Source: Candidatus Latescibacterota bacterium (lineage in GTDB: Bacteria > Latescibacterota > UBA2968). Taken from it: a stretch of 64,000 bases of DNA. The stretch is from NCBI GenBank assembly GCA_965207885.1, contig OZ242311.1, positions 2,944,001-3,008,000 of the forward strand, in the 5' to 3' direction. Under the pieces are notes generated by a model, which saw only the letters and a program-made list of their open reading frames with translations, did not search any database and was not told the origin of the DNA. Each line of letters starts with the position of its first letter. The stretch's first letter is position 1. The translations under genes and the position numbers were made by a program. Below are positions 2,931-21,820 of the stretch, piece after piece.

Positions 2931-3086
2931 AAAGTAGCTGCCTTTAGATAGAATGGATGAAACAAATTTAGATTACAAATATGTGTAAATCAAGTTTTCA
3001 ATAGGGATGAGGGAACGCCAGATCAGAGATATATATCTAATAATTCAGAACCGCAGATTATAAACGATCCATCGGATAGATGAAAA

Positions 3087-4684: not shown

Positions 4685-5905
4685 ATGAAGATTGTCGGGT
4701 TTGCGCTTGTCGCGTGCTTGTTGTGCGCTTTGGAAACGAATGCCTACGGTGCGGATTCCTTATCCGTCGAGGCGGGCTATGGTCGGATTGTGCTTCCGGG
4801 TACACAGGTGGATCTCAATGCCTCGATTACCAATGGTTCGGGCGCCCGTGTTGTGTGGCGGCAAGTGCAAGGGACGTCGGCGGCGATCAGTTCACCCAAT
4901 GCGCTCCAGACGACTGTTAGCGTTCCTGTCAATTTCAACCAGGCGGAGACATTGCTATTTGAAGTGCGTGCCGAGATGAATTCGGGTCAACAAGCATCGG
5001 ATACGGTTTGGATCGAGGTGTACGTACCTGAACAGAATCCCGCCGACCTGACGCTTGTGGCAGATTTTTCGCCGAAAGTTGGCTGGGAGTGCAATCAGGA
5101 CCCCGTAGAGGTTCCAGAGGTTCAGACCCGCGTTTTGGAAGATGCCATCGAGTACACGTCCAACGGCATTCCCGCCCATGCGACGGGAATATTTCCCAAT
5201 CGGGGAAATCCGAACATGATTTGGTCGGTAACGCAAACCTGGCGCATTCCCCGCTATCCCGTAAAGACAGATTCGCCCACCGAAATGGTTGTATTTGGCA
5301 TTACGCTTGAGGGCATAAAGCTCGAACCCGGCACTGCGGAGAGTTATCGCAACCAGCGGCAGTGGCGTTACGAGGCACTGACCCCGGGTATGGCGCGTCG
5401 ATTGAGCGGCACTGCGCGGTTCGAATGGCTGGGTACAGATTGCAATAACGCGCACGTTCAGCCGACGGGTGTTTACCACTATCACGGCGTGCCGCATAGC
5501 TTGATAAATGAACTCGCCGGTGGGATGGACAGTGAGGAGATGGTATTGGTCGGATATGCTGCCGACGGTTTTCCGGTCTATGTCGCCAGCGGACCCAATG
5601 CTCCTGAGGGGAGTTGGGAATTGCGCTCGGGTACGCGAGAAAGTGGACCAGGTGGAGAATATGACGGTACGTTTCGGGAAGATTGGCAATTTGTCGAGGG
5701 ATCGGGCGACCTCGACCAGTGCAATGGGCGATTCGGGATTACGCCCGAGTTTCCGGAAGGGATCTACCATTATTATTTGACCGAGGATTACCCGTACATA
5801 CCCCGCTGTGTATGGGGAACGCCAGATCCTTCGTTCCGGCAACACCGAGATGGTGGACCGCCCGGCGGTCGGCGTTTTAGAAGGCCCCCACCGCGGCGTC
5901 GTTGA
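4685..5905 (+). CDS. YHYH-family secreted protein with N-terminal PKD/Ig-like domain and Arg/Pro-rich tail
   Basis: Signal peptide, AHVQPTGVYHYHG, GYAADGFP, DLDQCNGR, YHYYLT. Confidence 0.88.
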   Translation: MKIVGFALVACLLCALETNAYGADSLSVEAGYGRIVLPGTQVDLNASITNGSGARVVWRQVQGTSAAISSPNALQTTVSVPVNFNQAETLLFEVRAEMNSGQQASDTVWIEVYVPEQNPADLTLVADFSPKVGWECNQDPVEVPEVQTRVLEDAIEYTSNGIPAHATGIFPNRGNPNMIWSVTQTWRIPRYPVKTDSPTEMVVFGITLEGIKLEPGTAESYRNQRQWRYEALTPGMARRLSGTARFEWLGTDCNNAHVQPTGVYHYHGVPHSLINELAGGMDSEEMVLVGYAADGFPVYVASGPNAPEGSWELRSGTRESGPGGEYDGTFREDWQFVEGSGDLDQCNGRFGITPEFPEGIYHYYLTEDYPYIPRCVWGTPDPSFRQHRDGGPPGGRRFRRPPPRRR

Positions 5906-5939
5906 AACGATAGGGGATGAAGATTATAATAAGAGGCTA

Positions 5940-7343
5940 ATGATGAGGCGACAATTGAGGATGTTCGGATTGGTTTTTTGCCTGATGAGTGTGTTGTGTA
6001 CCAGTTATGCAGAAGGGCACATGCTCTACAGCGATGAGAGTGATGTGACGGATTTCAATGGCGACGGAAAAACGGACTTCGATGATTTTATTTTGTTCGT
6101 GGCCGCATTTGGTTCACAACAGGTGCCGTTCGATCTAAATGGGAATGGCCTGGTAGATTTTCCCGATTTTCTGATATTTGCCGCCCAATTTGTTCAAACG
6201 TCTCCGAACGAAACGCCAGATACCTTATCCGTCGAGGCGGGCTATGGTCGGATTGTTCTTCCGGGTACACAGGTGCAACTCAACGCCACGCTTAATGGTC
6301 CGGGTGCCCAGATTGCGTGGCGACAAGTGGGCGGCATAGTGGCGGAGATTCGTTCGGCAAACGCGCTCCAGCCGATCATTAGCATTCCCGTTATGATCAA
6401 CCAGCCGGAAACCTTGCTATTTGAAGTGCGTGCCGAAAAGGATTCGGGGCAACAAGCATCGGATATCGTTTGGGTCGAGGCGTACGTGCCGCAACAGGAT
6501 GTCACAGATTTGACGCTTGTGGCAGATTTTTCGCCGAAAGTTGGCTGGGAGTGCGACCAGGATCCCGTCGCGGTTCCAGAGGTTCGGACCCGCGTTCTGG
6601 AAAACACCATCGAGTACACGACGAATGGCATTCCCGCCCATGCAACGGGAATGTTTCCCAATCGGGGTAATCCAAATACGATAGCTCAAGTGACGCAAAC
6701 CTGGAGGATTCCCCGCTATCCGGAAAAGACGAATACGCCTACTGAAATGGCTACATTTGGCATCACGCTGGACGGCATCAAACTCGAGCGCGATACCGCC
6801 GAGAGTTATCGCAATCAGCGGCAGTGGAGTTACGAGGCGCTGACCCCGGGTATGGCGCGGCGGTTAAGCGGCAATGCGCGGTTTGAATGGCTGGGGACAG
6901 ATTGCAATAACGCGCACGTTCAGCCGACGGGCATTTACCACTACCACGGCGTACCGCACGGACTGGTCAATGAACTCGCCAGTGAGGCTGGGAGCCAGGA
7001 TATGATATTGGTCGGATATGCTGCCGATGGTTTTCCGTTCTATGTCGCCCTCGGACCCGATGCGCCCGAGGGTAGTTGGGTATTGCGCCAGGGTACGCGA
7101 GAAAGCGCGCCGGGAGGGGCTTATGACGGCACGTTTCGGGAAGATTGGCAATATGTCGGATCGGGCGACCTGGATCAGTGCAATGGTCGGTTCGGGGTGA
7201 CGCCCGAGTTTCCGGAAGGGATCTACCATTATTATTTGACCGAGGATTACCCGTACATACCCCGATGTGTTTGGGGGACGCCTGATTCTTCGTTTCGGCG
7301 ACGTCGGGCTGGTGGCCCACCTCCTGGTGGTCCAGGAGGTTGA
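5940..7343 (+). CDS. YHYH-family secreted protein, paralog with N-terminal dockerin/EF-hand-like module
   Basis: ATG 5940 after AAGAGG; DFNGDGKTDFDDFI...DLNGNGLVDFPDFL, then the same PKD+YHYH body as 4685-5905. Confidence 0.88.
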   Translation: MMRRQLRMFGLVFCLMSVLCTSYAEGHMLYSDESDVTDFNGDGKTDFDDFILFVAAFGSQQVPFDLNGNGLVDFPDFLIFAAQFVQTSPNETPDTLSVEAGYGRIVLPGTQVQLNATLNGPGAQIAWRQVGGIVAEIRSANALQPIISIPVMINQPETLLFEVRAEKDSGQQASDIVWVEAYVPQQDVTDLTLVADFSPKVGWECDQDPVAVPEVRTRVLENTIEYTTNGIPAHATGMFPNRGNPNTIAQVTQTWRIPRYPEKTNTPTEMATFGITLDGIKLERDTAESYRNQRQWSYEALTPGMARRLSGNARFEWLGTDCNNAHVQPTGIYHYHGVPHGLVNELASEAGSQDMILVGYAADGFPFYVALGPDAPEGSWVLRQGTRESAPGGAYDGTFREDWQYVGSGDLDQCNGRFGVTPEFPEGIYHYYLTEDYPYIPRCVWGTPDSSFRRRRAGGPPPGGPGG

Positions 7344-7406: not shown

Positions 7407-8508
7407 ATCGGATGATCACATAACTTGATCGGGTATATCTGCGCGGAGGAGACAGACATCATGTTTTTAAAATTATTAAAATCAAAATGGGTGCTGGGTG
7501 CGACCTTCGCTTTATTTTGTATTTTTAGCCCAATCACTTTGAAAGCGTCACTGCCCGATTTTGATGGGAATGGCAAAGTCGATTTTGCCGATTTTCTACT
7601 TTTTGTAGCTGTATTTGGGCAATCGGCTGCTGGGCAAAATGCGATTTTCGACCTGGACACAAGTGGAACAGTTGATTTTGGAGATTTTTTAATTTTTGCC
7701 AGTGCATTTGGGCAACCCGTCTCTGATCCTGTTCGAGGTGTTAGTACTCAGGGTTTTGCAACGCAAACAATTTCCAATCTGCTCGATTGTCCCGGGGGGC
7801 GTATAAGTCGTGTGGGGACCATTACATCTGACGATGGCAATGTGTGGATTATGCCTGCCGAGACGCAATACACAACCGCAAGACATGCATCGGACATGTA
7901 TAACCAATGCACAGGTATTTTCACTTCCAATAGCAGTGCTCTCAATTTGTCGGCTGTGCCAGTCGTAGAGATCGATCAAGATGGTGAGACGATTACGGGA
8001 TATATCTTTGCTGACAATTACTTTGAATTGTATGTGAACGGTATCTTGATCGCGGTTGATGCAGTTCCGTTCACCCCGTTTAATTCGAGCATGGTTCGGT
8101 TTAAGGTTAAGCGGCCATTTACGATTGCAATGAAGCTGGTTGATTGGGAAGAGAATTTGGGGCTTGGTACAGAAGCTAATCGCAATTTTTTACACCATCC
8201 GGGAGATGGTGGTCTGGTCGCGAGTTTTCACGATGCCAATGGAAATACTATTGCAATTACAAATGATCAATGGAAAGCGCAGACTTTCTATATTGCACCC
8301 ATTAGAGATTTGAGCTGTATTGTCGAGAAGGAGACCGAGCATTTGTCCGGCGACTGTGACACGCGTGGTACAAATGATGGGAGTCTATTTTACGCAATGC
8401 ACTATCCCGTCCCATCGAACTGGTACGATAGCGACTTTGATGATTCGGCCTGGCCACGGGCATATACTTATACAAATGCGACAGTTGGTGTGAACAATAA
8501 ACCCGCAT

Positions 8509-9705
8509 TAAAGTACACGACAAAAAATAAAAGACCTGTGCAAAACGTGAAAAAGAGTTAGGTTTGAATGTGTGAAAACGAACCTTCTCATCTCAACAAG
8601 GCACAGGTCTATGTCTCGTCAAGTTATACAACTTCACCATGTATTGCAAGGCCATTTTGGGTGGCATAAAGCACGCATCACTTTCACAGCGGCCTTCATC
8701 TTGTCTTTGGTCAAGCTGAGCAGGGTCAACTTCGCCAAATTGGCTAATGCGCTAAATGGACAGGTCAAACCGCAATCAAATTACCGCAGGATACAGCGTT
8801 TTTTCGCTGAGTTTGACATTCCTTATGAAGCCGTGACGCGACTGATCTTGCACTTATTACCTATAAAGACCGATTTTGCAGTCTCAATAGATCGCACTAA
8901 TTGGAAGTTAGGCAAATTCAATATCAACATCCTAACCGCAGGCATTATCTATGAAGGGGTCGCCTTTCCTATGTGTTGGCACTTGTTAAAAAAACGAGGC
9001 AATTCCAATAGTGATGAGCGTATCAATTTGATGAAACAGGTGCTTACGCGCATTCCCAAGTCTCATATCCGCGTTGTATTGGCAGATAGAGAATTCATTG
9101 GAAGAGAATGGTTTGCGTGGTTAGACACACAAAACATCCCTTTTGTCATCCGCATCAAGGAAAATGCCCTTGTCTCAAGGGCAGATAGAGAGATACCCAT
9201 AAAAAAACTCTTTGAAAATTTGCACATCCATCAGCAGGTCAGCCTACAAAGACCTCGCCGCGTTTATGACCTACCTGTGTATGTGTCTGCGCTAAGATTG
9301 AAGGATCAATACCTCATTCTTGCAAGCAACCAACAACGTCAAGTCGCATTGGAGGTGTATAAAAAACGTTGGGGCATTGAAGTCCTTTTTGCAAATTTGA
9401 AAAGTCGAGGATTTAATCTGGAAGAGACCCACCTTATACATCAAGATCGCATTGAAAAACTCATCGCGCTTTTGGCTATTGCCTGCACCTGGGCCCATAT
9501 CATCGGCGAATGGATCGCCCTTACAAAACCTTTGAAGGTCAAAAACCACGGACGGATGGAAAAAAGTCTCTTCCGATATGGGTTGGACTATTTGCAGTAT
9601 GTCCTGCTCAATATACACCAACAAGCCCAGCAGTTCCTCAAATGCATTCGTTTACTGATTAATCCGCCAGATTTTAACCCGATTTAGGTTTTGTCGTGTA
9701 CTATG
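8509..9705 (+). mobile_element. IS4-family insertion sequence, 1197 bp
   Basis: Imperfect TIRs with core AGTACACGACAAAA / TTTTGTCGTGTACT; 7-bp TSD CCCGCAT at 8502-8508 and 9706-9712. Confidence 0.92.
8572..9687 (+). CDS. IS4-family DDE transposase (start may be ATG 8611)
   Basis: IDRTNWK, LADREFIG, YKKRWGIEVLFANLKSRGFNLEET (YREK motif). Confidence 0.92.
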   Translation: MKTNLLISTRHRSMSRQVIQLHHVLQGHFGWHKARITFTAAFILSLVKLSRVNFAKLANALNGQVKPQSNYRRIQRFFAEFDIPYEAVTRLILHLLPIKTDFAVSIDRTNWKLGKFNINILTAGIIYEGVAFPMCWHLLKKRGNSNSDERINLMKQVLTRIPKSHIRVVLADREFIGREWFAWLDTQNIPFVIRIKENALVSRADREIPIKKLFENLHIHQQVSLQRPRRVYDLPVYVSALRLKDQYLILASNQQRQVALEVYKKRWGIEVLFANLKSRGFNLEETHLIHQDRIEKLIALLAIACTWAHIIGEWIALTKPLKVKNHGRMEKSLFRYGLDYLQYVLLNIHQQAQQFLKCIRLLINPPDFNPI

Positions 9706-9843
9706 CCCGCATATACAAATTTTACGGATCTATTTGATAATCCTGAGCACGATGCACAATTTATATGGTCATCGAATCTCATTTTGGACAATGAAGTGAT
9801 TGTGAGATATACCGTAAAGTAGTGTTATGGAGGAATTGGACCA

Positions 9844-11268
9844 ATGAAGCGTAGAGAGTTTCTCGGTGTCGTCGGTGCTGGTGTCTGTGGGGTGGCGGTG
9901 GCCAATGCGTTTGGTCAAATTACGTCTAAGCGTTCCAAACAACCCAATTTTATTTTTATGGTTTCTGACGATCAGGGGTGGGATGGCCTTTCGGTGCAGA
10001 TGCACGATGCAGTTGCTGGCTCAAAGAGCGACTTTTATCAGACGCCTAATCTCGAGAAATTGGCACAACAGGGCATGCGTTTTTCGGCTGCTTATTCGCC
10101 TGCACCCGTCTGTGCGCCAACGCGATGCAGCCTTCAAACGGGCAAGAGTCCGGCAAAGAACCACTGGACAACGGTAGCCCCTCTCCAGGGTGCCGCGGAG
10201 AACCATAAACTCGTCCCGCCGATACATGGCAGAAATCTTGCCAAGGGTGAGACGACGATTGCCGAAATGTTGAAACAGGCTGGTTATGCCACGGCACATT
10301 ATGGCAAATGGCATCTCGGTGGTGGTGGTCCTGGAAATCACGGGTATGACGTACACGATGGAAATACGGGGAATCAGGATGCGGCGCCTCATGTCGATCC
10401 CAATCCGGTGGATATTTTCGGTATGTCCAGACGTGCGAATGCGCTTATGGAAGAGAATACGAAAGCCGGTAAGCCGTTCTTTATTCAGCTATCTTATTAT
10501 GCCCTGCACTATCCTCAGAATGCACTGGCAAGTACGCGGCAGGCATATGAAAATCGACTGAGAGGGCGCAGCTATCGAGAGATCAACCGTGCAGCCATTA
10601 CTGAAGATCTCGACACAGGTGTGGGTATGGTCATGGATCAAGTTGAGAAACTCGGCATAGGTGATCACACGTATCTGATTTACATGTCGGATAATGGTGC
10701 TGGCGGAAGAGGTCGGGGTATGTTGCGCGGTGGAAAAGGGTCTTTGTGGGAGGGAGGCATTCGCGTGCCGTTGATCATTCAGGGACCTGGTATAGAGCCA
10801 AATACGTTTTGTGATGAACGCGTGGTCGGTTTTGATCTATTTCCCACGCTTTGCGAACTGGGAGGCGTGAGCCCGCCGTTGCCAGTGGGTATTGAGGGGG
10901 GGAGTATCACATCGTTATTATCTGGTGGCGAGGGTGTGGTGGAGAGACCTCGTGAGGAGCTTGTGTTTCATTTTCCGCATTATCAAAGTGGGGATGGCCC
11001 ACATTCGGCAATCATGTTGGGCGATTACAAGCTGATCAAACTTTATGAGACCGATAAATTGCACCTGTTTGATCTGAGTAAGGATATAGGTGAGGAGAAT
11101 GACTTAGCAGATCGTAAACCAGAAGTTGTTGAGAAATTGCACGACCGACTGAATGAATATTTAGTATCTGTTGATGCCCAAATGCCCCAGCCCAATCCGT
11201 ATTACGATCCGAGTTGGCCGGTCGGCGGGCGAAGGGGGAGAAATAATCGGAGGAGAAGAACGCAGTAG
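9844..11268 (+). CDS. Tat-exported Cys-type sulfatase, paralog of 3087-4652, Arg-rich tail
   Basis: KRREFL Tat signal, CAPTR, GKWHLG; ends GGRRGRNNRRRRTQ. Confidence 0.93.
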   Translation: MKRREFLGVVGAGVCGVAVANAFGQITSKRSKQPNFIFMVSDDQGWDGLSVQMHDAVAGSKSDFYQTPNLEKLAQQGMRFSAAYSPAPVCAPTRCSLQTGKSPAKNHWTTVAPLQGAAENHKLVPPIHGRNLAKGETTIAEMLKQAGYATAHYGKWHLGGGGPGNHGYDVHDGNTGNQDAAPHVDPNPVDIFGMSRRANALMEENTKAGKPFFIQLSYYALHYPQNALASTRQAYENRLRGRSYREINRAAITEDLDTGVGMVMDQVEKLGIGDHTYLIYMSDNGAGGRGRGMLRGGKGSLWEGGIRVPLIIQGPGIEPNTFCDERVVGFDLFPTLCELGGVSPPLPVGIEGGSITSLLSGGEGVVERPREELVFHFPHYQSGDGPHSAIMLGDYKLIKLYETDKLHLFDLSKDIGEENDLADRKPEVVEKLHDRLNEYLVSVDAQMPQPNPYYDPSWPVGGRRGRNNRRRRTQ

Positions 11269-11502
11269 TCTTTGTCCTTCTATCCACTTCATCTATCATA
11301 GGTATTACGTCAACGCCTTTAAAGCGTCCTTATGCCATTAAAAGACAGGCTAACACGCTACGCTGCGCCAACTTGCGCGGCGTATTCTTTTTTAAAAACG
11401 GACTTACGCAATCAACCACAAAAAAACGCAAGTGAACGATGTACAACTGCGTAGCAGTTCATTTGAGCGTTTTACAGCGCGGCGGACAGATGGGCAAGTG
11501 GT

Positions 11503-11586
11503 ACATATCTTTCACATTACCGCCCATTCATCGCTCAAAATGTGCAGAGACTGTTCTGAGCCAAATAGACAATCCTTAAATTCAAG
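11503..11586 (+). promoter_or_regulatory. Conserved non-coding blocks shared with the leader of the second Rpn gene (candidate enhancer)
   Basis: ACATATCTTTCAC..TCATCGCTCAAAATGT and GAGCCAAATAGACAATCCTTAAA recur on the minus strand at 18531-18636. Confidence 0.65.
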
Positions 11587-11675
11587 TTGAAAAAAAGGGC
11601 GCAATACAGCATATTGAAGGCATAATAAGGGTATTTGATGCTGTCCATACCATTTGTCGTGCGATTCTGTGACAT

Positions 11676-11691
11676 TGGCCTGATATTTGCT
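11676..11691 (+). promoter_or_regulatory. Sigma54 (-24/-12) promoter candidate
   Basis: TGGCCTGATATTTGCT fits TGGC-N7-TTGCW spacing, about 60 bp before the Rpn ATG. Confidence 0.65.
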
Positions 11692-11750
11692 TGAGTTCTG
11701 ATTGTTGCGTTTGTCCAAAATACGACCAACCCTCAGACCAGACATCTCAC

Positions 11751-12701
11751 ATGGCAGAATTCGATACGATATCCAAACACCTGATTCAGAAATATCCCGA
11801 CGACTTTGCCAGCTTCACCCTCGGGAGCGAGGACATTGAAGTTCTTGCTGTCATTGACACAGAGCAATACACTGTTGAAGCACGCCAGACCGATAGCCTG
11901 ATTCGCGTGCGTATGGGTGACGAGGAGGTATTGGTCCACAACGAGTTTCAAACCACTGACAGCACCAATCCTCCTATGCCACGCCGCATGGCGGGCTATA
12001 TTGGACATGCTATTCGGCAACACGGCCTGCCGATATATTCCAATGTCATCTACCTGCGTCCGGATGCAGGGCAACGCGATCTCGGGTACTATGTCCAGGA
12101 GCATCTCGACTACGAAATCACGATTCGGTATCGCGTGATCAGACTGATTGAGATAGAAGGCGAGCGTGTCCTCAGTGCGGGGCAATCGGGCCTGATCCCA
12201 TTCACGCCATTGATGAAGCCACCTGAAGGGATGGCCTCGGATGTATGGTTGCATCAGTGTATTCACACGGCTCGGACGCGCCCCATCATTCGGTCATCCA
12301 GGGCCGATTATCTCGCAGGTATGGTGGCGTTGAGCGAATTGGTATATGAGTCTGAAGTCATTTCTGCTATTATTTTACAGGAGGGCATCATGGACTTGAT
12401 CCGCGAATCATCTCTTTTTCAATCCCTTACCCAGAAAAGCCGAGAGGAAAGTTTTGAACAGGGCAGAGAGGAAGGCAGAGAGGAGGGCATTGAGCAAGGC
12501 ATTGAGCAAGGGGGTAGAGAACGCGCTATTGAGGATATCCTCGACGTGCTGGAGATTCGATTTGATCTCCGCCAGATAGATCCCTTATCTGCTCGCATTT
12601 CAGCTATTGAAGATTTACAACGCCTCAAGCAGTTGCACCGTGCGGCGATACAGGTGTCCAATCTTGATGAATTTGAACGCATGTTAGATTCAACGACGTG
12701 A
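11751..12701 (+). CDS. Rpn/YhgA-like PD-(D/E)xK nuclease ('putative transposase')
   Basis: FDTISKHLI..YP, RQTDSLI, HNEFQT, MPRRMAGY; EQGREEGREEGIEQG repeats; internal AGGAGG-N5-ATG at 12390. Confidence 0.85.
   Translation: MAEFDTISKHLIQKYPDDFASFTLGSEDIEVLAVIDTEQYTVEARQTDSLIRVRMGDEEVLVHNEFQTTDSTNPPMPRRMAGYIGHAIRQHGLPIYSNVIYLRPDAGQRDLGYYVQEHLDYEITIRYRVIRLIEIEGERVLSAGQSGLIPFTPLMKPPEGMASDVWLHQCIHTARTRPIIRSSRADYLAGMVALSELVYESEVISAIILQEGIMDLIRESSLFQSLTQKSREESFEQGREEGREEGIEQGIEQGGRERAIEDILDVLEIRFDLRQIDPLSARISAIEDLQRLKQLHRAAIQVSNLDEFERMLDSTT
12462..12512 (+). repeat. 12-bp coding tandem repeats (GREE/GIEQ)
   Basis: GGCAGAGAGGAR x2 then GGCATTGAGCAA x2. Confidence 0.75.
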
Positions 12702-12702
12702 T

Positions 12703-14433
12703 ATGAAAAAAATATCATCCATCCCAATTTACACCATCGGTTACGGTAGCCGTTCCATTGAGCAATTCATCGAAGTACTACAACAACATGAAATTGCCTA
12801 CCTTATTGATGTGCGCTCAACTCCCTATTCTCGCTATAAACCCGAATTTTCCAAAGAGGCACTGGAGGTGAAGCTGCAACAGCACCAGATTCGGTATGTG
12901 TTCATGGGGGACACGTTGGGCGGGCATCCCGATGACGAAACTTGTTATGATGCGAAAGGGCAGGTGGATTACGAAAAGGTAAAGGAGATCGAAGTCTATC
13001 AGATGGGAATTGAACGTCTCCAAACAGCCTTTGCTCAACAACAATGTATTGCTCTCATGTGTAGCGAGGGAAAACCGGAACACTGCCATCGAAGCAAACT
13101 CATCGGAGCATCGCTCACGGCTCAGGATCTCCCCGTGATTCATATTGACGAAAACGACGAGCAGCAGACGCAGGATGACGTTATTGAGCGTCTGACAAAA
13201 GGACAAATGCTTCTGTCAGCCCAAGAGGTGCTCAAAGACGTTTTTGGGTATGAACAGTTCCGACCTTTGCAGGAGACAATAATCAGCCACATTCTCAACC
13301 GGCACGATGCGCTGATCGTTCTGCCAACGGGGGGTGGGAAGTCACTCTGCTATCAACTGCCCGCCCTTATCTTCAATGGCGTAACGGTTGTCGTATCTCC
13401 GTTGATTTCGCTTATGCAAGACCAGGTAATGCAGTTGCAACAGCGGGATGTTTGCGCCGCTTTTCTCAACAGTACCCTTAGCCAGCGAGAATATGTTGCC
13501 ACAATGCAGCGTGTCAAAAGGGGTGAAATTAAGCTACTTTACGTTGCGCCTGAAACGCTCCTGCGACCTGAGATTTTGTTGATGCTCGATGAGTCACATG
13601 TAGCCTGCCTTGCAATTGATGAAGCACACTGTATTTCACAGTGGGGCCACGATTTTCGTCCAGAGTATCGACAACTGGTTTCCGTTCGTGAACGATTCAG
13701 GAACGCTGTCTGCGTCGCGCTGACAGCTACTGCCACGCCACGGGTTCAGCAGGACATTAAACAATTGCTCAAAATTCAGGTGGAAAATGAATTCATTGCC
13801 AGTTTTGACCGGAAAAATCTCTTCATGGGTATTGAATTGAAAGAGGCGGTGCTACAGCAGACGCTTGCATTTCTCAATACCCATCGTGATGAATCCGGTA
13901 TCATCTATTGCCAGACGAAGAAACAAGTTGAATCGCTGTTTCGCAATTTAATTGAACGTGGGATTCCGGCACTTCCTTATCATGCAGACCTGGATAGCGA
14001 AACCCGCAAGCAGAATCAGGAAGCTTTCATCAACGGGGACATTCAGGTGATAGTTGCAACAATTGCTTTTGGAATGGGGATTGATAAAGAAGATGTACGT
14101 TTCATACTACATATAGGATTGCCAAAGGAACCTGAGTCTTACTATCAGGAGATTGGACGTGCTGGCCGAGATGGACATCAAGCGGATTGCCTTTTACTGT
14201 TCAATCACGGCGACGTTGACACCATCAAATATTTCATAGATCAAGGTGCGCCATCTGAACGAGAAGGAGCTTTGAAACGATTACAGACGCTTGTTGATTG
14301 GGCGACTTCTGCAGCGTGTCGCCGCAAAGGATTATTGGCTTATTTCGGAGATCATTACGAAGAACAAAATTGTGGAATGTGTGATAACTGTCGCCAGGCG
14401 GAAATGGAGCGAGTTGACCTAGGTAGTGTCTGA
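12703..14433 (+). pseudogene. recQ: DUF488-RecQ helicase fusion truncated by IS5 after the Zn-binding region
   Basis: N-terminal IYTIGY..LIDVRS.PYS..MCSE...CHR (DUF488); LPTGGGKS, DEAHCISQWGHDFRPEY, QEIGRAGRDG, CRR...CGMCDNC; IS begins at 14422, winged-helix and HRDC domains absent. Confidence 0.88.
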
Positions 14434-15358
14434 AAAGTCGTAAAGTATGTATTTTAGTTGCAGCATACGCCCTAAACCAAGGAGTATGATATGCAACGGA
14501 GATATGAACTGCGCGACGAGGCTTGGCATCTGATCCAAGACCTGTTCCCACCGCCGAAGAAGATGGGTCGTCCCCGTCGGGATGATCGTACATTATTCAA
14601 CGGGATCTTCTGGATATTGTGTTCAGGTGCAGCTTGGCGCGACCTGCCAGAACGATATGGTCCTTGGCAGACAGCCTTTGACCGATTCTGCAAATGGAAA
14701 CAGGATGGCACCTTTGATCGCATTGTAGAAAAGCTACATCTCAAATTGGGTGAAGATGGTCTTTTAGATTATGCGACCTGGATGATGGATGCAACCCATA
14801 TTCGAGCCACACAAGCCGCGGCAGGAGCGAAAAAAAAAGGGCAAAAAGGGTGAAGAAGAGCCCCCAGATCACGCTTTAGGACGCTCTCGTGGCGGTTTGA
14901 CCACGAAAATCCATCTTCTTTGCGATGCAGTCGGGCATCCTTTAGCAGTGGATCTTCTCCCTGGTAACCAGTCAGAATCCACACAGGCTGAAAGGCTACT
15001 GTCAAAGGTATGCATACCCACCAAACGAGGGCGTCCAAGAAACCGACCCAAGTATCTGGTAGCTGATAAATCTTATGATGTCTCACGCATCAGAGTCTAT
15101 CTACGCAAACGGGGTATCAAGGCTGCTATCCCAAACAAGGCGATTCCCAAAGGCAGAAAACGGCGTAAGAGAGGACCACGGCCTAAGTGTGATAAAAGAT
15201 TATATGCCAAACGCAATATCGTGGAGCGTCTCTTTGGTTGGCTTAAACACTGCCGACGGATTGTGACCCGATTTGAAAAAAAGGCGACTCATTTTCTCAC
15301 TATGGTCAAGCTGGCCTGTATCAGACAACTCTTCAAAGCTTACTTTTCAGACACTACC
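14422..15358 (+). mobile_element. IS5-family insertion sequence, copy 2, 937 bp
   Basis: Same TIRs, TA flanks, internal ORF translations identical to copy 1. Confidence 0.95.
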
Positions 15359-15361
15359 TAA
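14491..15361 (+). CDS. IS5 transposase (OrfA 14491-14853 + OrfB 14789-15361, -1 frameshift)
   Basis: Identical to copy 1; GCGAAAAAAAAAGGG slippery site; stop is target TA+A. Confidence 0.93.
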
Positions 15362-15611
15362 AGAATTCGATCTGGATAGATACAACGATTCTCCGTATGG
15401 CATCACGTATGCGAACAACCGATTCTATGTGGTTGATCGGCCAGATGCTAAGGTCTATGTGTACACCAGTGACGGACAGCGGGTGGCAGAGGCAGACTTT
15501 TTTTTGGATATCGGCAACGGTTATCCGAGTGGTATCACATATGCGAACAACCGACTCTATGTGGTTGATTCGGAGAATAAGAAGGTCTATGTGTACACGG
15601 GTTCCGAATAA
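15359..15611 (+). pseudogene. C-terminal fragment of an NHL-like beta-propeller repeat protein
   Basis: Two 44-aa repeats P.GITYANNR.YVVD....KVYVYT (132-bp period); no start codon, cut by the IS. Confidence 0.7.
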
Positions 15612-15623
15612 AACATCGGAGGA

Positions 15624-17399
15624 ATGAATAGGAGAGTACATGGCCCGAACGTTCTTATTTTTTTTATTCTCACAGCGCCCGCCCGTGCAGATACAATAAT
15701 ACCAGGTATTGAAAGCGTCTTGTACGAAGTCTATCAGGACTGGCAATCTCAAAAATATGCTCGTGCGAAACAGACGCTCAATCAATACGATACTGAATTG
15801 GTGCAATCCAATAGGGTTATAGTTACACTTGAACCCGATTCAATAGGGCACTCTAAAACAATCAATACTGACGAACTCGAAGAAATCCAAGCCAAGATTC
15901 TGGCACGTTCTCGAAGCCTCTTAAGAGTCTCTGTACCGATACCCAAGCTCCCGAGACTGACACAAGTTTCAGGCGTCAATTTGGTACGAACACCGATGCG
16001 TCCGATATTAAACGCGGTTGAAGGCGAAGGTTTCCAGTTGATTCAGGCATTAAAATTTCATAATGCTGGACACATGGGCGAAGGGGTGAAAATTGCTGTT
16101 TTAGACGGAGGATATGCTAAATCTCAAGAAGCACAGTCTAATGGCGACCTCCCACCAAATTTCAGTGTCATAGGTTATTCGCCGAACAATGAGCGCCATG
16201 GAACCGGTTGTGCCGAAATTATTTATGACATAGTGCCTGAAGCGTTGTTATTACCATTTCAATATGATGATTTTCTGGAGTTTGAAAACGCAGTTGACAC
16301 AGCAATCCAAAACGACATAGATATTATCTCTTATTCTGGTGGATGGGTTGATGGTTGGGGTGACGGTAAGGGACGGTCTTGTGAGATTGTAAAACGTGCG
16401 TATCAGAACGGGATTTTATGGGTTAATGGCATTGGGAATGAAGCCAAAAATTTCTATCGCGGACGCTTTCAAAGTACCGATGGCGACAGAGATCATGACT
16501 TTGGAGGTGAATACGATGCGATTCAGATCAAGAATGTCAGCGTGGGAGATGAGATTCGTATAGCTTTGGTGTGGGATGACTTTCCTCGGACTTCAGAAGA
16601 CTATGACATGTATCTGTGGAAGTCAGTATTGGGAAGCAATGCGAGAGTTGACAGGTCTATAACGACGCAAAGAAATTCAAAACCGTTTGAGTCTATTGAA
16701 TATACTGTTACAGATGCGGGACTCTTTACAAGCTATCATATTCAAATTGTAAAATCTGCTTCTGCTCGACCTATGGACTTTAAAATTATCAGCCTAAATC
16801 ACAACTTATCAGAAGAATTTGTCACGCCTCGTGGGTCTCTTATTAACCCTTCTGATTCCGAGTATGCTGTATCGGTGGGAGCTATCAGATCGAGTCGATA
16901 TATTTATGGGCCTCAAGAAGATTACAGCTCGCAAGGTCCTACAATGGACGGCAGAATAAAGCCTGATATCATGGGGCCAACAGGCGTGAAAACGTATGCT
17001 TACGGCTCACAGGGTTTTCATGGAACCTCCGCCGCAACTCCGCATGTTGCTGGCGCAGCAGCGTTGATACTCTCGGCGAATTCCGAATTAACGGTTTCGG
17101 AACTTCGCAACAAATTGTTTGAGGCTACAGTTGACATGGGAAGCCCTGGGAAGGACAATATTTATGGTCATGGCCGATTGGATTTATCGCCGATAGATAT
17201 AACGCCTCCTGTCTTTCATGCAGGAGATTTTGACGGCGATTTGGATGTAGATATTTTAGATTTGTTGGCTTTTTCAGAGGTCTATGGGCTTACGTCGTCA
17301 GACCCGAATTATGATGCCCGTATGGATATGGACAACAATGGTGTCATTGATGTGTTAGACCTTCTGCTGTTTGCGGAAGTTTATGGAAAAACGTACTAA
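15624..17399 (+). CDS. Secreted S8 subtilisin-like protease with C-terminal dockerin/EF-hand-like module
   Basis: KIAVLDGG, HGTGCA, GTSAATPHVAGAAAL; GDFDGDLDVDILDL...DMDNNGVIDVLDL. Confidence 0.9.
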   Translation: MNRRVHGPNVLIFFILTAPARADTIIPGIESVLYEVYQDWQSQKYARAKQTLNQYDTELVQSNRVIVTLEPDSIGHSKTINTDELEEIQAKILARSRSLLRVSVPIPKLPRLTQVSGVNLVRTPMRPILNAVEGEGFQLIQALKFHNAGHMGEGVKIAVLDGGYAKSQEAQSNGDLPPNFSVIGYSPNNERHGTGCAEIIYDIVPEALLLPFQYDDFLEFENAVDTAIQNDIDIISYSGGWVDGWGDGKGRSCEIVKRAYQNGILWVNGIGNEAKNFYRGRFQSTDGDRDHDFGGEYDAIQIKNVSVGDEIRIALVWDDFPRTSEDYDMYLWKSVLGSNARVDRSITTQRNSKPFESIEYTVTDAGLFTSYHIQIVKSASARPMDFKIISLNHNLSEEFVTPRGSLINPSDSEYAVSVGAIRSSRYIYGPQEDYSSQGPTMDGRIKPDIMGPTGVKTYAYGSQGFHGTSAATPHVAGAAALILSANSELTVSELRNKLFEATVDMGSPGKDNIYGHGRLDLSPIDITPPVFHAGDFDGDLDVDILDLLAFSEVYGLTSSDPNYDARMDMDNNGVIDVLDLLLFAEVYGKTY

Positions 17400-17421
17400 G
17401 GATAGCCCGATGTTCACCAAA

Positions 17422-17497
17422 CAAATACCCCTGTCTGATTATTTTGGACAGGGGGTATTTGCCTGCCCGCCTATCTGCTGACAGGCAGCGGGCGGGC
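17422..17497. terminator. Paired hairpins between convergent genes (likely bidirectional terminator)
   Basis: CAAATACCCCTGTC...GACAGGGGGTATTTG then GCCTGCCCGC...GCGGGCGGGC. Confidence 0.55.
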
Positions 17498-17549
17498 GTG
17501 ATGGCGCGATCACAGATCGCCCATTTCAATTTATCTTATTGGTTCGCCT

Positions 17550-18368
17550 CTATTTTTTGCCATTTTCCTCTTTCAATACAGAACGGATGGCTTCCATATC
17601 AATATCTGGATACGTCTTTTGAATGGCTGCAAATATTTCTCTCTGTCCTTCTTCTCGGCCTTCTTCTCGGCCTTCTTCTCTGGCTTGTTTCATGATGTAT
17701 TGTGCAAAAGATGATTCGCGCATAATCGCATCCATAAGACCCTCCTGGGATAAAATACGACTAATCGTGGCTGGCGCATACGCTAATCCACTCAATATCG
17801 TCAACCCACCCAAAATGTCAACCTTTATTGATTCTTCCAACGGCAAAGCTCTCGCAGCATCAATACACGACTGTAACCACGCTTCAGAATCCATTTCATC
17901 AGGACGTTTCATCAATGGCGCAAATGGAAGCAATCCCGCGTGTCCTTCATTGAGAATGTGCTGTCCTTCGATCTCGATCAGTCTGATCACGCTATATTGG
18001 AAGAGAAGACGATGACCTGGCAGGTTTTGGATATAGTGTCCCGGATCGTTCTTTCCCGCATTGGGACGCAAGTAGATCACGCTGGAATAGATCGGCAAGT
18101 GATGCGTCTCAATGGCTCTGATGGTATAGCCGGCCATCCGAATGGGCATTGTCGGATCGGTAGTGGTTTGAAATTCGTGATGTACCAATGCCTCTTCACC
18201 TGCAATCTGAACTTTGATGAGGCTGTCCATGTGATGTGTTTGTGTTGTTGGTTGTTCTGTGTCGAGAATGTCGAGAAATTGGACGTCGTCTCGTTGGAGA
18301 GAGAGTCGGATGAAGTCTTGAGGGTAGGTTTGGATGAAGTGTTTTGAGATGGTGTCGTATTGGGGCAT
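17550..18368 (-). CDS. Rpn/YhgA-like PD-(D/E)xK nuclease, second paralog
   Basis: YDTISKHFI..YP, HMDSLI, HHEFQT, MPIRMAGY; REEG repeats; internal AGGAGG-N5-ATG at 17735. Confidence 0.85.
   Translation of the reverse strand: MPQYDTISKHFIQTYPQDFIRLSLQRDDVQFLDILDTEQPTTQTHHMDSLIKVQIAGEEALVHHEFQTTTDPTMPIRMAGYTIRAIETHHLPIYSSVIYLRPNAGKNDPGHYIQNLPGHRLLFQYSVIRLIEIEGQHILNEGHAGLLPFAPLMKRPDEMDSEAWLQSCIDAARALPLEESIKVDILGGLTILSGLAYAPATISRILSQEGLMDAIMRESSFAQYIMKQAREEGREEGREEGQREIFAAIQKTYPDIDMEAIRSVLKEENGKK
17647..17680 (-). repeat. 12-bp coding tandem repeat (REEG x3)
   Basis: CCTTCTTCTCGG x2 plus CCTTCTTCTC. Confidence 0.85.
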
Positions 18369-18441
18369 GTGCTCGCCTTTGGTCTGTATATTTCTGAGGC
18401 GGGCGAAAGATGTTTCGCCGTCCCGTAACCCTCAGACCTTA

Positions 18442-18457
18442 TGCAAACCTTATGCCA
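18442..18457 (-). promoter_or_regulatory. Sigma54 (-24/-12) promoter candidate
   Basis: Minus strand reads TGGCATAAGGTTTGCA, about 75 bp before the Rpn ATG. Confidence 0.7.
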
Positions 18458-18530
18458 ATGGCCTGGAATTGGGCGATGAATGGCAGGATAAGACGCGCTA
18501 ATCTCCTTATTTTTCTTCAGTTATTGATCA

Positions 18531-18636
18531 CTCAATTTTAAGAATTATCTATTGACTCGGATCAGCCTCAGTGCAAATGTGAGGCAAAAAAGTGTACATT
18601 TTGAGCGATGATTGAGTAGAGAAGTGAAAGATATGT
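18531..18636 (-). promoter_or_regulatory. Conserved non-coding blocks shared with the leader of the first Rpn gene
   Basis: Minus strand ACATATCTTTCAC..TCATCGCTCAAAATGT and GAGTCAATAGATAATTCTTAAA. Confidence 0.65.
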
Positions 18637-18826
18637 GTTCGAATGTAGAGCGAAAAATGCCAGCCTTTATTGATTCATATTGTGCTGACATAGCGCAATT
18701 GCCTGTTGTTTTTTTCTATGACTATCGAGTTTATTTTTATAGGTTTATCATTATATTGCCTACCTTTGTGCCGTGAACTGGTCTGGACTGCGACCAGTTG
18801 TACACCGCCCGTGGATAATTATCGCC

Positions 18827-21820
18827 ATGCCAGACGATCCCATCACATTAAACGCACGCCAGCGCGAAGCGGTTACCGCGCCGATAGGTCCAGTTCTCGT
18901 GCTGGCGGGACCGGGTACGGGGAAGACGCGGGTGCTGACCGAACGCATTGCGTATCTGGTCTCGCGGCGCGGCGTCCATCCGGAAAATATCCTGGCGCTC
19001 ACATTTACAAATAAGGCTGCTGCAGAACTTCAAATCCGCTTGTCGCGCACGTTGAGCAAAGAAACTGCGGAGGTTATTACCGCAGGTACATTTCACAGGT
19101 TTTGTATCTCAATTCTGCGGGAGCATCGAGAAACGGTTGGGTTGCCGCCGCATTTTGGCATTGCCGATGAAGACCTTCAGCGCACGCTGATCTATCGCGC
19201 ATTTCCTCGCCTGAATCCCAATGAAAGCAATTTGAATAATGTGATGCAAAATGTGAATCGCCTGAAGTGGCAGCGGCGATACAAGGCGCATGTTCCGATG
19301 AAAAAAGGGGATGCGGCATTGCTTGATCAGTACGAATCCGAGCTTAAGAAAAATCGATTGATCGATTTTGACGATCTCATCTTTCTCGCGCATGATTTGC
19401 TTCATTCGCATCGCCAGATTCTGGCGGATTATCGCGCGCAATTTCAACATATTCTCGTCGATGAGTTTCAAGATACCGATCCCGTGCAATACGCCCTCGT
19501 TTATTTGTTGGGCGCGGCTCACCGGAGTGTTTTTGTGGTTGCAGATGACGAGCAGTCCATTTACGGGTGGCGACATGCCAGGCCAGAACATATCGAACAA
19601 TTTCGGGATGATTTTCTCAAAGGTCGTTCGCCCATTTTTTTGGAGGAAAACTACCGATCATCCGCAGAAATTTTGCGGCTGGCGCGCGTGTTTATCGCCA
19701 ATAATGACGTGTTGTTTGAACGCAGTATCCATACCCAGAGATCGGGACGCCGCGTGCGGGGGATGGCTTTTGATACGTTTGAGGAAGAAGGCCAGTTTAT
19801 TGCGGGCGATATCTGGGATCGCATCCGGGAAACGCCCGATCTGGTTCACCGGGATATTGCGGTGCTTTATCCCCAACACGCAATAGGCAGCGAGCTCGAG
19901 CGCATTTTTATGCGCGCCAATGTTCCCTGCCTGATGGCTCATCGCAGGGGCTTGTTCGATCAGCCCGTGATCCGTCGTGCCCTGTCCGTGTTGCGCTATG
20001 CCCTCGATGGCGCGAATGACGCGAGTCTCGAGTTGTTTTTGCGGCGCGAACTCGAAGCAGTGGATCCCAAATTATACCCGGCGGTGCGGGGATTTCAGAA
20101 ACAAAAAAATATTGGGAGTTTCAAACAGGCGGCTTTTCTGTATCCGCGAACGGTTTCGGAAGAAGAGGGCGTGGATGTGGAACGCGCGCTGGGTCTGGCA
20201 GGTGTGGTACACAATGCCGTGCAAAGAGGCGCGGTCGCATCTTTGCCCCATCTGGTGGATGATATTCTGGACCAATTGAATACATCGGAGTTGCCATCTC
20301 TGAAAAATCATCTCGATGACATTGTAGATCCACTCGAACTTTCGGATCTCAATATCGCTCTGAATCGCGTGTTGCCACTCTGGCGCAGGGGCGGCACCTT
20401 GTATGTGGCGTGTCGAGACGAGGTGCTGCGGCATATGCTCACAACTCTGATCCGGGATGCACTGGCGCGGCCGGGTCTCATCATACGAGAGGCTGTGCCC
20501 GGCAGCCGATTGGATGTTTTATCCGATACTCTAATTTTGTCCTTTGACGAAGATCCGCCGAAAACACCCGAACACTTTTTACATTTGGGAGGCATGGCGT
20601 GTGGTGCAATGCTCGCTGCTCTCAAATTGTGTCAGGCGATCCGCTGCGCAGATTTGCCAGCGTATATGCCGGAATACACTGCATTTGCGTTGGAAACGGC
20701 GGATGACGATCCCGAGCAAGCACAGATCACAGCTCTGGGTGCTGTGCGCGTGCGAGATGGGCGTGCTGTCGATACATTTTATTCGCCCGTACGCCTGCGA
20801 GAGGACAAAGGCACGGCTCCTACATTTCAGGAAATTTATCTCGCGTTTCAGGCGTTTGTCGGTATCGATATTCTGGTCGCACACAATGGCTATGCGTTCG
20901 ATTTTCAGGTTTTGCACCGCGAAGCCCGCCGCAATGGCAGGTCTCGCATGCCCAATCCGACGGTTGATATATTGCCTATGGCGCGAAGCTATGGCGCGAC
21001 TGCTACACGCGATTTGCGCCCTCTTTGCGAGCGGTATGATATTGCGTCAGATCCAAACGATCCGCCGGCACGCGCGCGGGCATTGGCCTTGCATCGCGTG
21101 TTTGAAGCTATGAAGAAAGAGCGCGCCTCTCGCTACCGGCGTATGACGCATGAACGCCTTTTGGATCACGTTGCTCTGGGCTTGCTTTTTCGCACGCGCG
21201 ATGGGGTAAGGGATACGGAATTTTCCCGCGAAGAACACGTGCATTTCAATCTGGGGGCGCAGCGTCTTTTGGGGCCGGCCAATTTGTGCATTCGCAATCT
21301 CGTGCAGCACTACCCTCGATTGGATGCCGACCGGCTGCGGGGACAGGCGCGGATGTTGCTCGGCGAAGATCCCCGTCCCGATGTGCTCGCGTTGCACGCC
21401 CCCGATCAGATTCAACGCTTTCGAGACCTTTGCGAACGCCACGGTGCTGCTGCGCCATCTCTTCAGGAGGGCATTCGCAATTTGCTCGATTTTGCCGATC
21501 TCTACAAAGTCGAATTGGATACCCAAGACCGCGATGCTGTGCATTTGCTGACGTTGCACGCGGCAAAGGGGCTTGAGTTTCGAGAGGTCTATATTTGCGG
21601 TCTCGAAGATCGCATTTTGCCCAATGCCCGCGCCCTGAACAGCGCGGATTTGGCCGAACAACGCAGGTTGTTGTACGTGGGGATCACCCGCGCAATGGAT
21701 CGCCTCACGCTTTCCTGTGTGCAGCATCGTCCGGGCCGAAATATGGCGCCTTCTCGATTCTGGGATGAACTCGGTTTAGAACGCGATGATCGCGGTGTGG
21801 ATGCCGCTCCAACGGCGTAA
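18827..21820 (+). CDS. UvrD/PcrA-family helicase with an inserted DnaQ-like exonuclease domain
   Basis: AGPGTGKT, TFTNKAA, VDEFQD, LEENYRS, TLHAAKGLEF, RRLLYVGITRA; insert contains VAHNGYAFDF. Confidence 0.9.
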   Translation: MPDDPITLNARQREAVTAPIGPVLVLAGPGTGKTRVLTERIAYLVSRRGVHPENILALTFTNKAAAELQIRLSRTLSKETAEVITAGTFHRFCISILREHRETVGLPPHFGIADEDLQRTLIYRAFPRLNPNESNLNNVMQNVNRLKWQRRYKAHVPMKKGDAALLDQYESELKKNRLIDFDDLIFLAHDLLHSHRQILADYRAQFQHILVDEFQDTDPVQYALVYLLGAAHRSVFVVADDEQSIYGWRHARPEHIEQFRDDFLKGRSPIFLEENYRSSAEILRLARVFIANNDVLFERSIHTQRSGRRVRGMAFDTFEEEGQFIAGDIWDRIRETPDLVHRDIAVLYPQHAIGSELERIFMRANVPCLMAHRRGLFDQPVIRRALSVLRYALDGANDASLELFLRRELEAVDPKLYPAVRGFQKQKNIGSFKQAAFLYPRTVSEEEGVDVERALGLAGVVHNAVQRGAVASLPHLVDDILDQLNTSELPSLKNHLDDIVDPLELSDLNIALNRVLPLWRRGGTLYVACRDEVLRHMLTTLIRDALARPGLIIREAVPGSRLDVLSDTLILSFDEDPPKTPEHFLHLGGMACGAMLAALKLCQAIRCADLPAYMPEYTAFALETADDDPEQAQITALGAVRVRDGRAVDTFYSPVRLREDKGTAPTFQEIYLAFQAFVGIDILVAHNGYAFDFQVLHREARRNGRSRMPNPTVDILPMARSYGATATRDLRPLCERYDIASDPNDPPARARALALHRVFEAMKKERASRYRRMTHERLLDHVALGLLFRTRDGVRDTEFSREEHVHFNLGAQRLLGPANLCIRNLVQHYPRLDADRLRGQARMLLGEDPRPDVLALHAPDQIQRFRDLCERHGAAAPSLQEGIRNLLDFADLYKVELDTQDRDAVHLLTLHAAKGLEFREVYICGLEDRILPNARALNSADLAEQRRLLYVGITRAMDRLTLSCVQHRPGRNMAPSRFWDELGLERDDRGVDAAPTA

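Follow-up and report, generated by a model that had tools for sequence, protein, structure and literature searches.

Genes of the Rpn family in Escherichia coli (rpnA-E and rpnP2) have been described as gene-within-gene toxin-antitoxin or phage-defence nucleases (PMC10400941; PMC5350276). In that account of the RpnL/RpnS pairs, an N-terminal PD-(D/E)XK-type domain with a D...E-x-Q arrangement is combined with an internal start that yields a short C-terminal protein, several paralogs occur per genome, and a hypervariable number of four-residue repeats, composed of one hydrophobic residue together with charged residues or Gly, begins about 20 residues past the internal Met (PMC10400941). The same source states that release of the toxic full-length nuclease is unresolved, reports for rpn genes no target-site duplications and no evidence of autonomous transposition, knows of no autonomous transposase with this fold, considers it very unlikely that Rpn proteins are transposases, and names TnsA of Tn7 as the one known PD-(D/E)XK transposition protein, which works with a DDE partner (PMC10400941). 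A second source allows that Rpn genes may be eroded mobile elements (PMC5350276). From another direction, an in-silico survey reports predicted sigma-54 promoters before the DDE transposase families COG3666, COG3464 and COG3385, with a caution on repeats; Rpn is not among the three transposase families that this survey names (PMC12316311). Here we analyse two Rpn-like genes, copy A and copy B, and their shared leader in a 64,000-nucleotide (nt) stretch of a Candidatus Latescibacterota genome (assembly GCA_965207885.1, contig OZ242311.1, positions 2,944,001 to 3,008,000), hereafter the window, to which all coordinates refer unless a locus is named.

We propose, with a probability of about 0.6, that both window genes are copies of a unit of roughly 1.1-1.3 kb that is widespread in Latescibacterota-labelled genomes and carries its own sigma-54-type promoter. 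A complete unit would consist, in this order, of a 13-bp left inverted repeat, the leader blocks, the sigma-54-type promoter, a 5' untranslated region (UTR) of about 35-60 nt, the Rpn gene and a 13-bp right inverted repeat, with a 5-bp target duplication outside. Relatives were collected in one scan of genome contigs with a protein alignment (A2), which returned 246 pattern matches, of which 199 were confirmed. All counts of leaders and units use the best 80 of these 199 relatives, equivalent to 79 loci, which together with the two window copies make 81 copies. The 79 loci all come from metagenome-assembled genomes labelled Latescibacterota, Latescibacteria or Gemmatimonadota (26 assemblies by our own count), and one chromosome holds up to seven of them among the best 80 matches. 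Two protein subfamilies were distinguished, subfamily 2 being the 19 copies L058-L079 minus L060, L070 and L075, with about 57-60% amino acid identity to copy A.

Copy A is the open reading frame (ORF) at 11751-12701 on the plus strand (316 aa) and copy B the ORF at 18368-17550 on the minus strand (272 aa), with a C-terminal part that is shorter than that of copy A and diverged; the two proteins are identical at 116 of 231 positions (50%). The initial annotation had described a leader common to both genes, and alignment of the upstream regions recovered its elements at the positions given there, with the order shared by both copies. Block 1, ACATATCTTTCAC, is exact at 11503-11515 (+) and 18624-18636 (-), the only two exact occurrences among five window matches at up to two mismatches. 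Block 2 (TCATCGCTCAAAATGT..) spans 11528-11546 (+) and 18593-18611 (-), and TCATCGCTCAAAATGT itself is exact at 11528-11543 (+) and 18596-18611 (-), again the two exact cases among three window matches at up to three mismatches; it holds the distal copy of a 9-mer, ATCGCTCAA, 147 nt upstream of the GG of the promoter element in copy A and 153 nt in copy B. Block 3, A/T-rich (GAG..AATAGA..CTTAAA; full pattern GAG.CTG.TC.GAG.C(A)AATAGA.AAT.CTTAAA), lies at 11547-11580 (+) and 18537-18569 (-). The spacers between blocks have diverged, as had been claimed, with 23 additional nt between blocks 2 and 3 in copy B. The candidate -24/-12 element follows as TGGCCTGATATTTGCT at 11676-11691 (+), with GG at 11677-11678 and GC at 11689-11690, and as TGGCATAAGGTTTGCA at 18442-18457 (-), where a proximal 9-mer, ATCGCCCAA, starts 21 nt upstream of GG. 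Downstream of TGGC-N7-TTGCW, both copies continue with TCTGA, CAGACC and then the ATG. By the usual numbering, with the C of GC at -12, transcription would start near 11702 in copy A and near 18431 in copy B, and the predicted 5' UTR region of copy A (11697-11737, +) is bounded by an invariant TCTGA (11697-11701) and TCAGA (11733-11737).

The window alone cannot decide whether these elements are promoters because the pattern is not rare in 64 kb: TGGC-N7-TTGCW was found three times against 1.81 expected, and three or more matches occurred in 32 of 100 shuffles, which is not significant by itself. The weight therefore lies on its homologous position in relatives. The third window match, at 50440-50455, falls inside a glycosyltransferase ORF and is probably due to chance; it lies 152 nt before a 163-aa ORF that has no Pfam match.

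Among the relatives, exact TGGC-N7-TTGC was present in 75 of the 79 loci as well as in both window copies, and two further loci (L061 and L069) have CGGC in place of TGGC, so that [T/C]GGC-N7-TTGC is found in 79 of 81 copies. The two without it are L059, which has no motif, and L073, a copy deleted at its 5' end. The motif sits at -56 to -118 from the ATG, with one exception at -233 (L069). In that locus an insertion of about 177 nt (about 2790-2965) separates the motif from the Rpn gene, and the GCTGAGCG...GTCGAAGCATCT segment within this insertion is similar to the interior of two miniature elements, in L078 and L012, described below. Seventeen distinct 15-mers of the motif occur at fixed spacing, and across 53 distinct 29-mers the GG and GC positions are unchanged while the spacer varies. 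The initial annotation's expectation that GG/GC spacing would be constant among paralogs thus held in 79 of 81 copies and in two extra Rpn copies found in the flanks of loci L067 and L049, where the motif lies 43-45 nt before the ATG.

The extended sigma-54 consensus is TGGCACG-N4-TTGCW. The third spacer position is G in 78 of 79 copies, the same base as in this consensus, and the window copies match it at 11 of 12 (TGGCCTG..TTGCT) and 10 of 12 (TGGCATA..TTGCA) specified positions. Subfamily 2, whose leader cannot be aligned with that of subfamily 1, carries the textbook form TGGCACGATTCTTGC: fourteen of its copies read TGGCACGATT(C/T)TTGC, the next base being C, not W, in the copies aligned. 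Like known -24/-12 promoters, these leaders combine GG-N10-GC spacing, TGGCACG-N4-TTGC in subfamily 2, and blocks 100-200 nt upstream; unlike the usual case, one repeated site abuts the -24 element and the downstream nuclease gene lies inside a transposon-like unit. Because two short elements and their spacing are kept across otherwise unalignable leaders, we read them as a sigma-54 promoter signature, and a sigma-54-type promoter is the likely and best reading of TGGC-N7-TTGC from these alignments. The -24/-12 assignment of the initial annotation thereby gains support from the breadth of the motif, its sequence variants and the form taken in the distant subfamily. In subfamily 2 leaders, a TGT-N12-ACA dyad, CTGTATCCTTTYCGCTACAC, is also conserved about 50-65 nt upstream of GG (about -125 to -105 relative to the ATG), and the inferred 5' UTR holds a GTTGCGG...CCGCAAC hairpin immediately ahead of the ribosome-binding site.

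In the 485,843 nt of flanks, TGGC-N7-TTGCW occurred 18 times against 7.3 +/- 3.3 in shuffles. Two of these matches belong to the further Rpn copies and four to one orthologous intragenic site, and no recognisable wider regulon emerged from the other sigma-54-type sites in these flanks. The strict form TGGCAC-N5-TTGC occurred once, at the second copy of L067. In both loci with two units, the second copy is likewise preceded by a TGGC-N7-TTGC motif of its own; the pairs are tandem in L067 (3001-3924 and 4240-5175) and divergent in L049 (1380-502, minus strand, and 3001-3888).

Gene neighbourhoods are not conserved between copies. In subfamily 1, homology begins at about -270/-340 and stops at about +0/+50; the left border in subfamily 2 is at -150/-170. 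Many copies have a 13-bp inverted repeat, ACTGAYRTTACGC, upstream of the leader, and many have the corresponding right end, ..GCGTAACRTCAGT, of which ACTGAYRTTACGC is the reverse complement, after the stop codon. At a threshold of at least 11 of 13 matching positions, 29 of the 81 copies have a recognisable left end, 21 a right end and 13 both, the last group giving unit lengths of 1068-1329 bp. The 5-bp flanks of these 13 two-ended units agreed at five of five positions in eight cases, at four in one, at three in three and at two in one, where the chance of a full match is about 1 in 1024 per pair. The perfect duplications were TGGTA, TAATA, TATTC, TATGA (twice, in L058 and L068, which represent one orthologous site), GAATA, TAATA and TTTTA. 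The same ends and duplication length are found in both protein subfamilies. Two miniature elements with the same 13-bp ends, one of about 95 nt (L078, about 5509-5603) and one of about 210 nt (L012, about 6130-6340), are both flanked by perfect 5-bp duplications (TAGTT and TACTT), and their subterminal sequence resembles, by eye, that of the units with a gene. In L027, at about 910, a right end stands alone and has no visible partner, and two end-motif matches inside long ORFs (L045, +710; L073, -1492) were taken as chance.

These units resemble insertion sequences (IS), miniature inverted-repeat transposable elements and passenger elements in their short terminal inverted repeats, fixed A/T-rich 5-bp duplication, single ORF and length of about 1.1-1.3 kb, and also in their many dispersed copies, some decayed or truncated, and in miniatures that share ends and subterminal sequence. 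Unlike in known IS, the sole ORF encodes a PD-(D/E)XK nuclease and not a DDE, HUH, serine or tyrosine enzyme. No second conserved ORF was found in the unit, antisense frames are not consistently open (85-298 aa, reaching 150 aa in 49 of 81 copies), and no transposase of a known catalytic class, including any DDE domain, was detected in it; nor was an autonomous partner found in the window and loci. Taken together, that leader and gene form a dispersed mobile unit in the relatives is well supported by these comparisons. Defined ends, target duplications and miniature derivatives are what the Latescibacterota units add to the discussion of Rpn genes, and the inverted repeats and duplications set these relatives apart from the E. 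coli rpn genes. For the window copies, neither of which has recognisable ends, we infer mobility from the relatives only; these copies would have lost their inverted repeats and become fixed in place while keeping leader, promoter motif and open frames.

What moves the unit is a separate question. One tentative possibility is that the Rpn-family PD-(D/E)XK nuclease is itself the transposase, or an essential nuclease, of an undescribed IS family whose expression is gated by the sigma-54 promoter, so that movement, or defensive cutting of DNA, would occur only on a signal. Because two subfamilies that are about 58% identical in protein and have unalignable leaders keep the same ends, duplication length and promoter type, gene and ends appear to have descended together for a long time, which makes a chance passenger less likely. 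This co-descent favours self-movement, whereas the known chemistry of the fold favours movement in trans by a DDE element.

Within the leader, blocks 1-3 were found with few mismatches in about 57-61 of the 81 copies (block 1 in 61, at up to three mismatches), about 100-175 nt upstream of GG, as first proposed. Across nine diverse leaders of subfamily 1 and copy B-like type, the invariant segments are A.ATCTTTCA, TTCAT.G.TCAAAA, TGGC..TTTGC, TCTGA and CAGAC. A point absent from the initial annotation is that ATCGCTCAA (at most one mismatch) occurs twice in direct orientation: the distal site lies at -147 to -198 from GG in 55 of 61 leaders and the proximal site at -21 to -33 in 39 of 61, against a background of 97 occurrences per 394,229 nt. 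Of the window copies, B has both sites and A the distal one only. Neither block 1 (0/81) nor block 2 (0/81) is mirrored at the unit's right end, and the reverse complement of the promoter motif occurred in 3 of 81 genes plus tails, which is noise level and forms no ordered mirror. Since the blocks are kept in copies that have no terminal repeats, including both window copies, and have no mirror at the right end, they probably serve gene expression and not movement. The suggestion that they might be the end of a mobile unit therefore survives in part: the leader does lie inside the left end of such a unit, but the blocks are not its terminal repeats. They look like regulator sites instead of element ends or RNA, and the regulator could be an activator, a repressor or the short Rpn protein itself.

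The assignment of the encoded proteins to Rpn is itself one of degree. Neither window ORF matched Pfam at E<=0.001, with PF04754 (Transposase_31) reached by copy B alone at a relaxed threshold (E=0.035). The Rpn family model TIGR01784 matched copy A with 29.1 bits (E=8.5e-7) and copy B with 25.9 bits (E=7.6e-6), both below its curated cut-off of 52.1 bits, and 18 of 41 diverse relatives at E<=0.001 (best 5.5e-14). A word-index search found 2050 relatives at E<=0.001 among 3957 candidates, three close ones bearing the source name 'Rpn family'; in an exhaustive search, the representatives at E<=0.001 numbered 2340, of which 490 reached E<=1e-10 and 73 reached E<=1e-30. The PD-(D/E)XK-type residues of copy A are D48, E65 and Q67. 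In an alignment of the 41 diverse relatives, D48 and Q67 do not vary, and E65 is conserved in at least 90% of the sequences. A structure model built from that alignment (predicted local distance difference test, pLDDT, 93.0; predicted template-modelling score, pTM, 0.79) has its elements in the order expected for an alpha-beta-beta-beta-alpha-beta core; an earlier model from 14 close sequences (pLDDT 52.9) was not used. A fold search with the model returned no match at E<=0.001, and a sequence profile search of the PDB returned none. The best weak fold matches were mostly nucleases (Cap4, XisH-like, McrC, Bax1, NucS and restriction enzymes), which we take to share the restriction-endonuclease-like fold.

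The gene-within-gene layout is the second line of evidence. In copy A, an internal Shine-Dalgarno sequence ACAGGAGG and the ATG of Met214 (12377-12392, +) would give an RpnS-like product of 103 aa ending at 12701, with five four-residue repeats (FEQG REEG REEG IEQG IEQG) at 12453-12512 (+). In copy B, CCAGGAGG at 17748-17741 (-) precedes the ATG of Met212 (17735-17733) and three REEG repeats (17681-17646, -). AGGAGGG-N4-ATG is found at Met214 in 52 of 79 complete genes, these 52 carrying 1-10 tetrads of the form [ILRF]E[EQ]G 3' of the internal start, and gaps in the A2 alignment come in multiples of four residues. Two predicted stand-alone proteins of the representative library, P0164 and P0242, begin exactly at residue 214. 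An internal translation start for an RpnS-like short product is thus predicted from the sequence, and the domain, short product, repeat position and number, and paralog count all recall E. coli RpnL/RpnS, from which these proteins differ in falling below the curated family cut-off and in having a promoter that looks sigma-54-type. The 'Rpn' label is upheld by the TIGR01784 matches, catalytic residues and layout, with the reservation about scores, and we treat the window genes as diverged Rpn-type nuclease genes with a putative gene-within-gene. Sigma-70-like matches lie inside both genes upstream of the internal starts (12262-12289, +; 17821-17794, -); they may be internal promoters for the short protein, although their positions are not homologous and the scan is at chance level.

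Several observations weigh against a sigma-54-driven mobile unit. No rpoN or enhancer-binding protein gene is among the window genes, and motifs of bacterial enhancer-binding proteins (GAFTGA-type) or the RpoN box were found in none of the 2583 frames of at least 80 aa in the window and loci, searched with short motifs. A weak sigma-70-like sequence, TTGAAA-17-CATATT, lies at 11587-11615 in a well-kept part of the copy A leader. The window copies (TGGCCT.., TGGCAT..) fit the textbook TGGCAC less well than subfamily 2 does. Blocks 1-3 occur in 0 of 19 subfamily 2 copies (block 1 being scored at up to three mismatches), so that no single enhancer is common to all. The proximal 9-mer, about 12-24 nt upstream of GG, is unusually placed for an activator site and would fit a repressor or looping protein equally well. 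Empty sites were looked for among the 79 loci and none was seen: flanks from the 13 two-ended units and from one miniature matched only orthologous filled or partly deleted sites. Finally, in both window copies the best match to the inverted repeats is 8 of 13, the commonest best score in random 320-nt stretches taken from the same set of loci.

The first three of these points would also be expected if TGGC-N7-TTGC were the site of another protein, or a conserved piece of the left end, and the gene were transcribed from a different promoter such as TTGNNA-17-CATATT, the match at 11587-11615 falling within a segment kept in subfamily 1. We consider this the most serious alternative, although an improbable one: it does not readily account for GG and GC being held at fixed spacing around a variable spacer in nearly all copies, nor for the exact textbook form in subfamily 2; copy B lacks the sigma-70-like segment, and matches of this kind are no more frequent than chance in the region scanned (2 found versus 2.4 expected). 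A left-end piece would also be hard to reconcile with the want of an ordered mirror at the right end.

A second alternative is a host-built, signal-activated regulon unrelated to mobility, in which every Rpn paralog of the chromosome would have gained or retained a sigma-54 promoter with an enhancer. The retention of leader and open frames in copies whose left (52 of 81) or right (60 of 81) repeat is not recognisable does look like host maintenance. However, leader and gene form one repeated unit with sharp homology borders in unrelated neighbourhoods, so the shared leader does not reflect independent promoter recruitment, and both deep subfamilies have the same 13-bp ends and 5-bp duplication length, ends that the miniatures share; this account is therefore unlikely, slightly more so than the preceding one. 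The 'regulon' of the initial annotation stands insofar as a single sigma factor would control every copy, with one set of sites shared within a subfamily, but its origin would lie in copying.

It is also conceivable, at low odds, that the blocks have no function of their own and are kept only through gene conversion or young duplication. The family is multi-copy, with at least seven loci on single chromosomes among the best 80 matches, and Rpn proteins are reported to promote recombination (PMC5350276). Between the window copies, however, the leader block pair (44 nt) is 82% identical and contains exact 13- and 16-mers, whereas the best coding stretch (135 nt) is 73% identical, so that the blocks are better kept than the genes; exact blocks between diverged spacers, upstream of proteins that are only half identical, are the opposite of a conversion tract, and the 9-mer recurs at two fixed places.

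The initial annotation had further allowed for an RNA element. Short hairpins in both copies and the invariant TCTGA...TCAGA pair downstream of the motif speak for a structured leader RNA, cis-regulatory or small, transcribed from further upstream. An Rfam search of 9000-21000 at E up to 1 gave nothing relevant (one chance long non-coding RNA match, E=0.88), and RNAalifold on 17 diverse leaders (of 21 selected, the four with no match to the block 1 pattern being left out) gave no consensus structure between blocks and promoter (energy 0.0) and only an invariant 5-bp pair in the UTR (-1.8). With no covariation in the 17 leaders, and with a TCTGA/TCAGA pair that never varies and so argues neither for nor against a stem, this last explanation can be set aside as highly improbable.

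Under the reading that we prefer, a mobile unit with its own sigma-54-type promoter, the leader would be the unit's regulatory region, inherited with the gene. Sigma-54 RNA polymerase would sit closed on TGGC-N7-TTGC and keep the full-length nuclease off, an enhancer-binding ATPase at the upstream blocks would open the promoter on a signal, and the short C-terminal protein from the internal start may restrain the nuclease in the way reported for RpnS of E. coli. What the DNA itself shows are the motifs with their conservation, the inverted repeats, the duplications and the signals of an internal start; sigma-54 dependence, the activator, the antitoxin role and the mover of the unit are what we infer from them. 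Because sigma-54 is reported to be nearly always present in diderm bacteria with lipopolysaccharide (PMC3162934) and the host phylum is placed in the Fibrobacteres-Chlorobi-Bacteroidetes (FCB) group, the host is likely to have rpoN. Literature searches found nothing linking Rpn or recombination-promoting nucleases to sigma-54/RpoN, nothing relevant on sigma-54 in Latescibacteria and nothing on transposases in sponge-associated Latescibacterota; a search combining transposase, sigma-54-dependent promoter and insertion sequence gave nothing relevant as judged by titles and abstract openings.

Around the two copies, the window holds several other features. A gene encoding a fusion of DUF488 and a RecQ-type helicase (12703-14433) starts 2 nt past the copy A stop, and a fusion of a UvrD/REP helicase with an RNase T-type exonuclease (18773-21820, 1015 aa) is divergent from copy B. 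Both were considered as conserved neighbours or operon partners and rejected, as neither gene lies beside the relatives, apart from a 35-aa N-terminal DUF488-RecQ remnant (3965-4069) found 3' of the Rpn gene in L001, the closest of the loci compared. Past this remnant, L001 has a sulfatase that is 83% identical to the sulfatase upstream of copy A, and this comparison suggests that the 3' end of the Rpn gene was the site of a rearrangement. An IS5-type element is present in two 943-nt copies (1721-2663 and 14418-15360) that are 100% identical and in inverted orientation, with DDE_Tnp_1 ORFs at 1720-2292 and 14789-15361; its ends differ from those of the Rpn unit, and the DUF488-RecQ ORF shares its final 16 nt with the second copy. 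Recent paralog pairs are two sulfatases (3087-4652 and 9844-11268; 82% amino acid identity, 86% over 300 nt) and two YHYH-domain proteins (4685-5905 and 5808-7343; blocks of 80-91% nucleotide identity). A 41-nt repeat, GTAGATTTTGCCGATTTT.., occurs in six copies within the C-terminal parts of several secreted-protein genes (4515-4636, 6153-6193, 7578-7711 and 17247-17287), the copy at 17247 lying in the dockerin-type region of an S8 peptidase.

For the Rpn family, a type of promoter that stays silent unless an ATP-driven activator acts would offer a concrete and testable switch for the release of the toxin. The inverted repeats, the 5-bp duplications and the adjoining miniatures reopen the old 'putative transposase' label for Rpn, and the unit may be the first transposon whose only protein has a restriction-endonuclease-like fold. 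Movement in trans would instead make the unit a clear case of a defence-type toxin-antitoxin gene carried as transposon cargo with its own regulated promoter.

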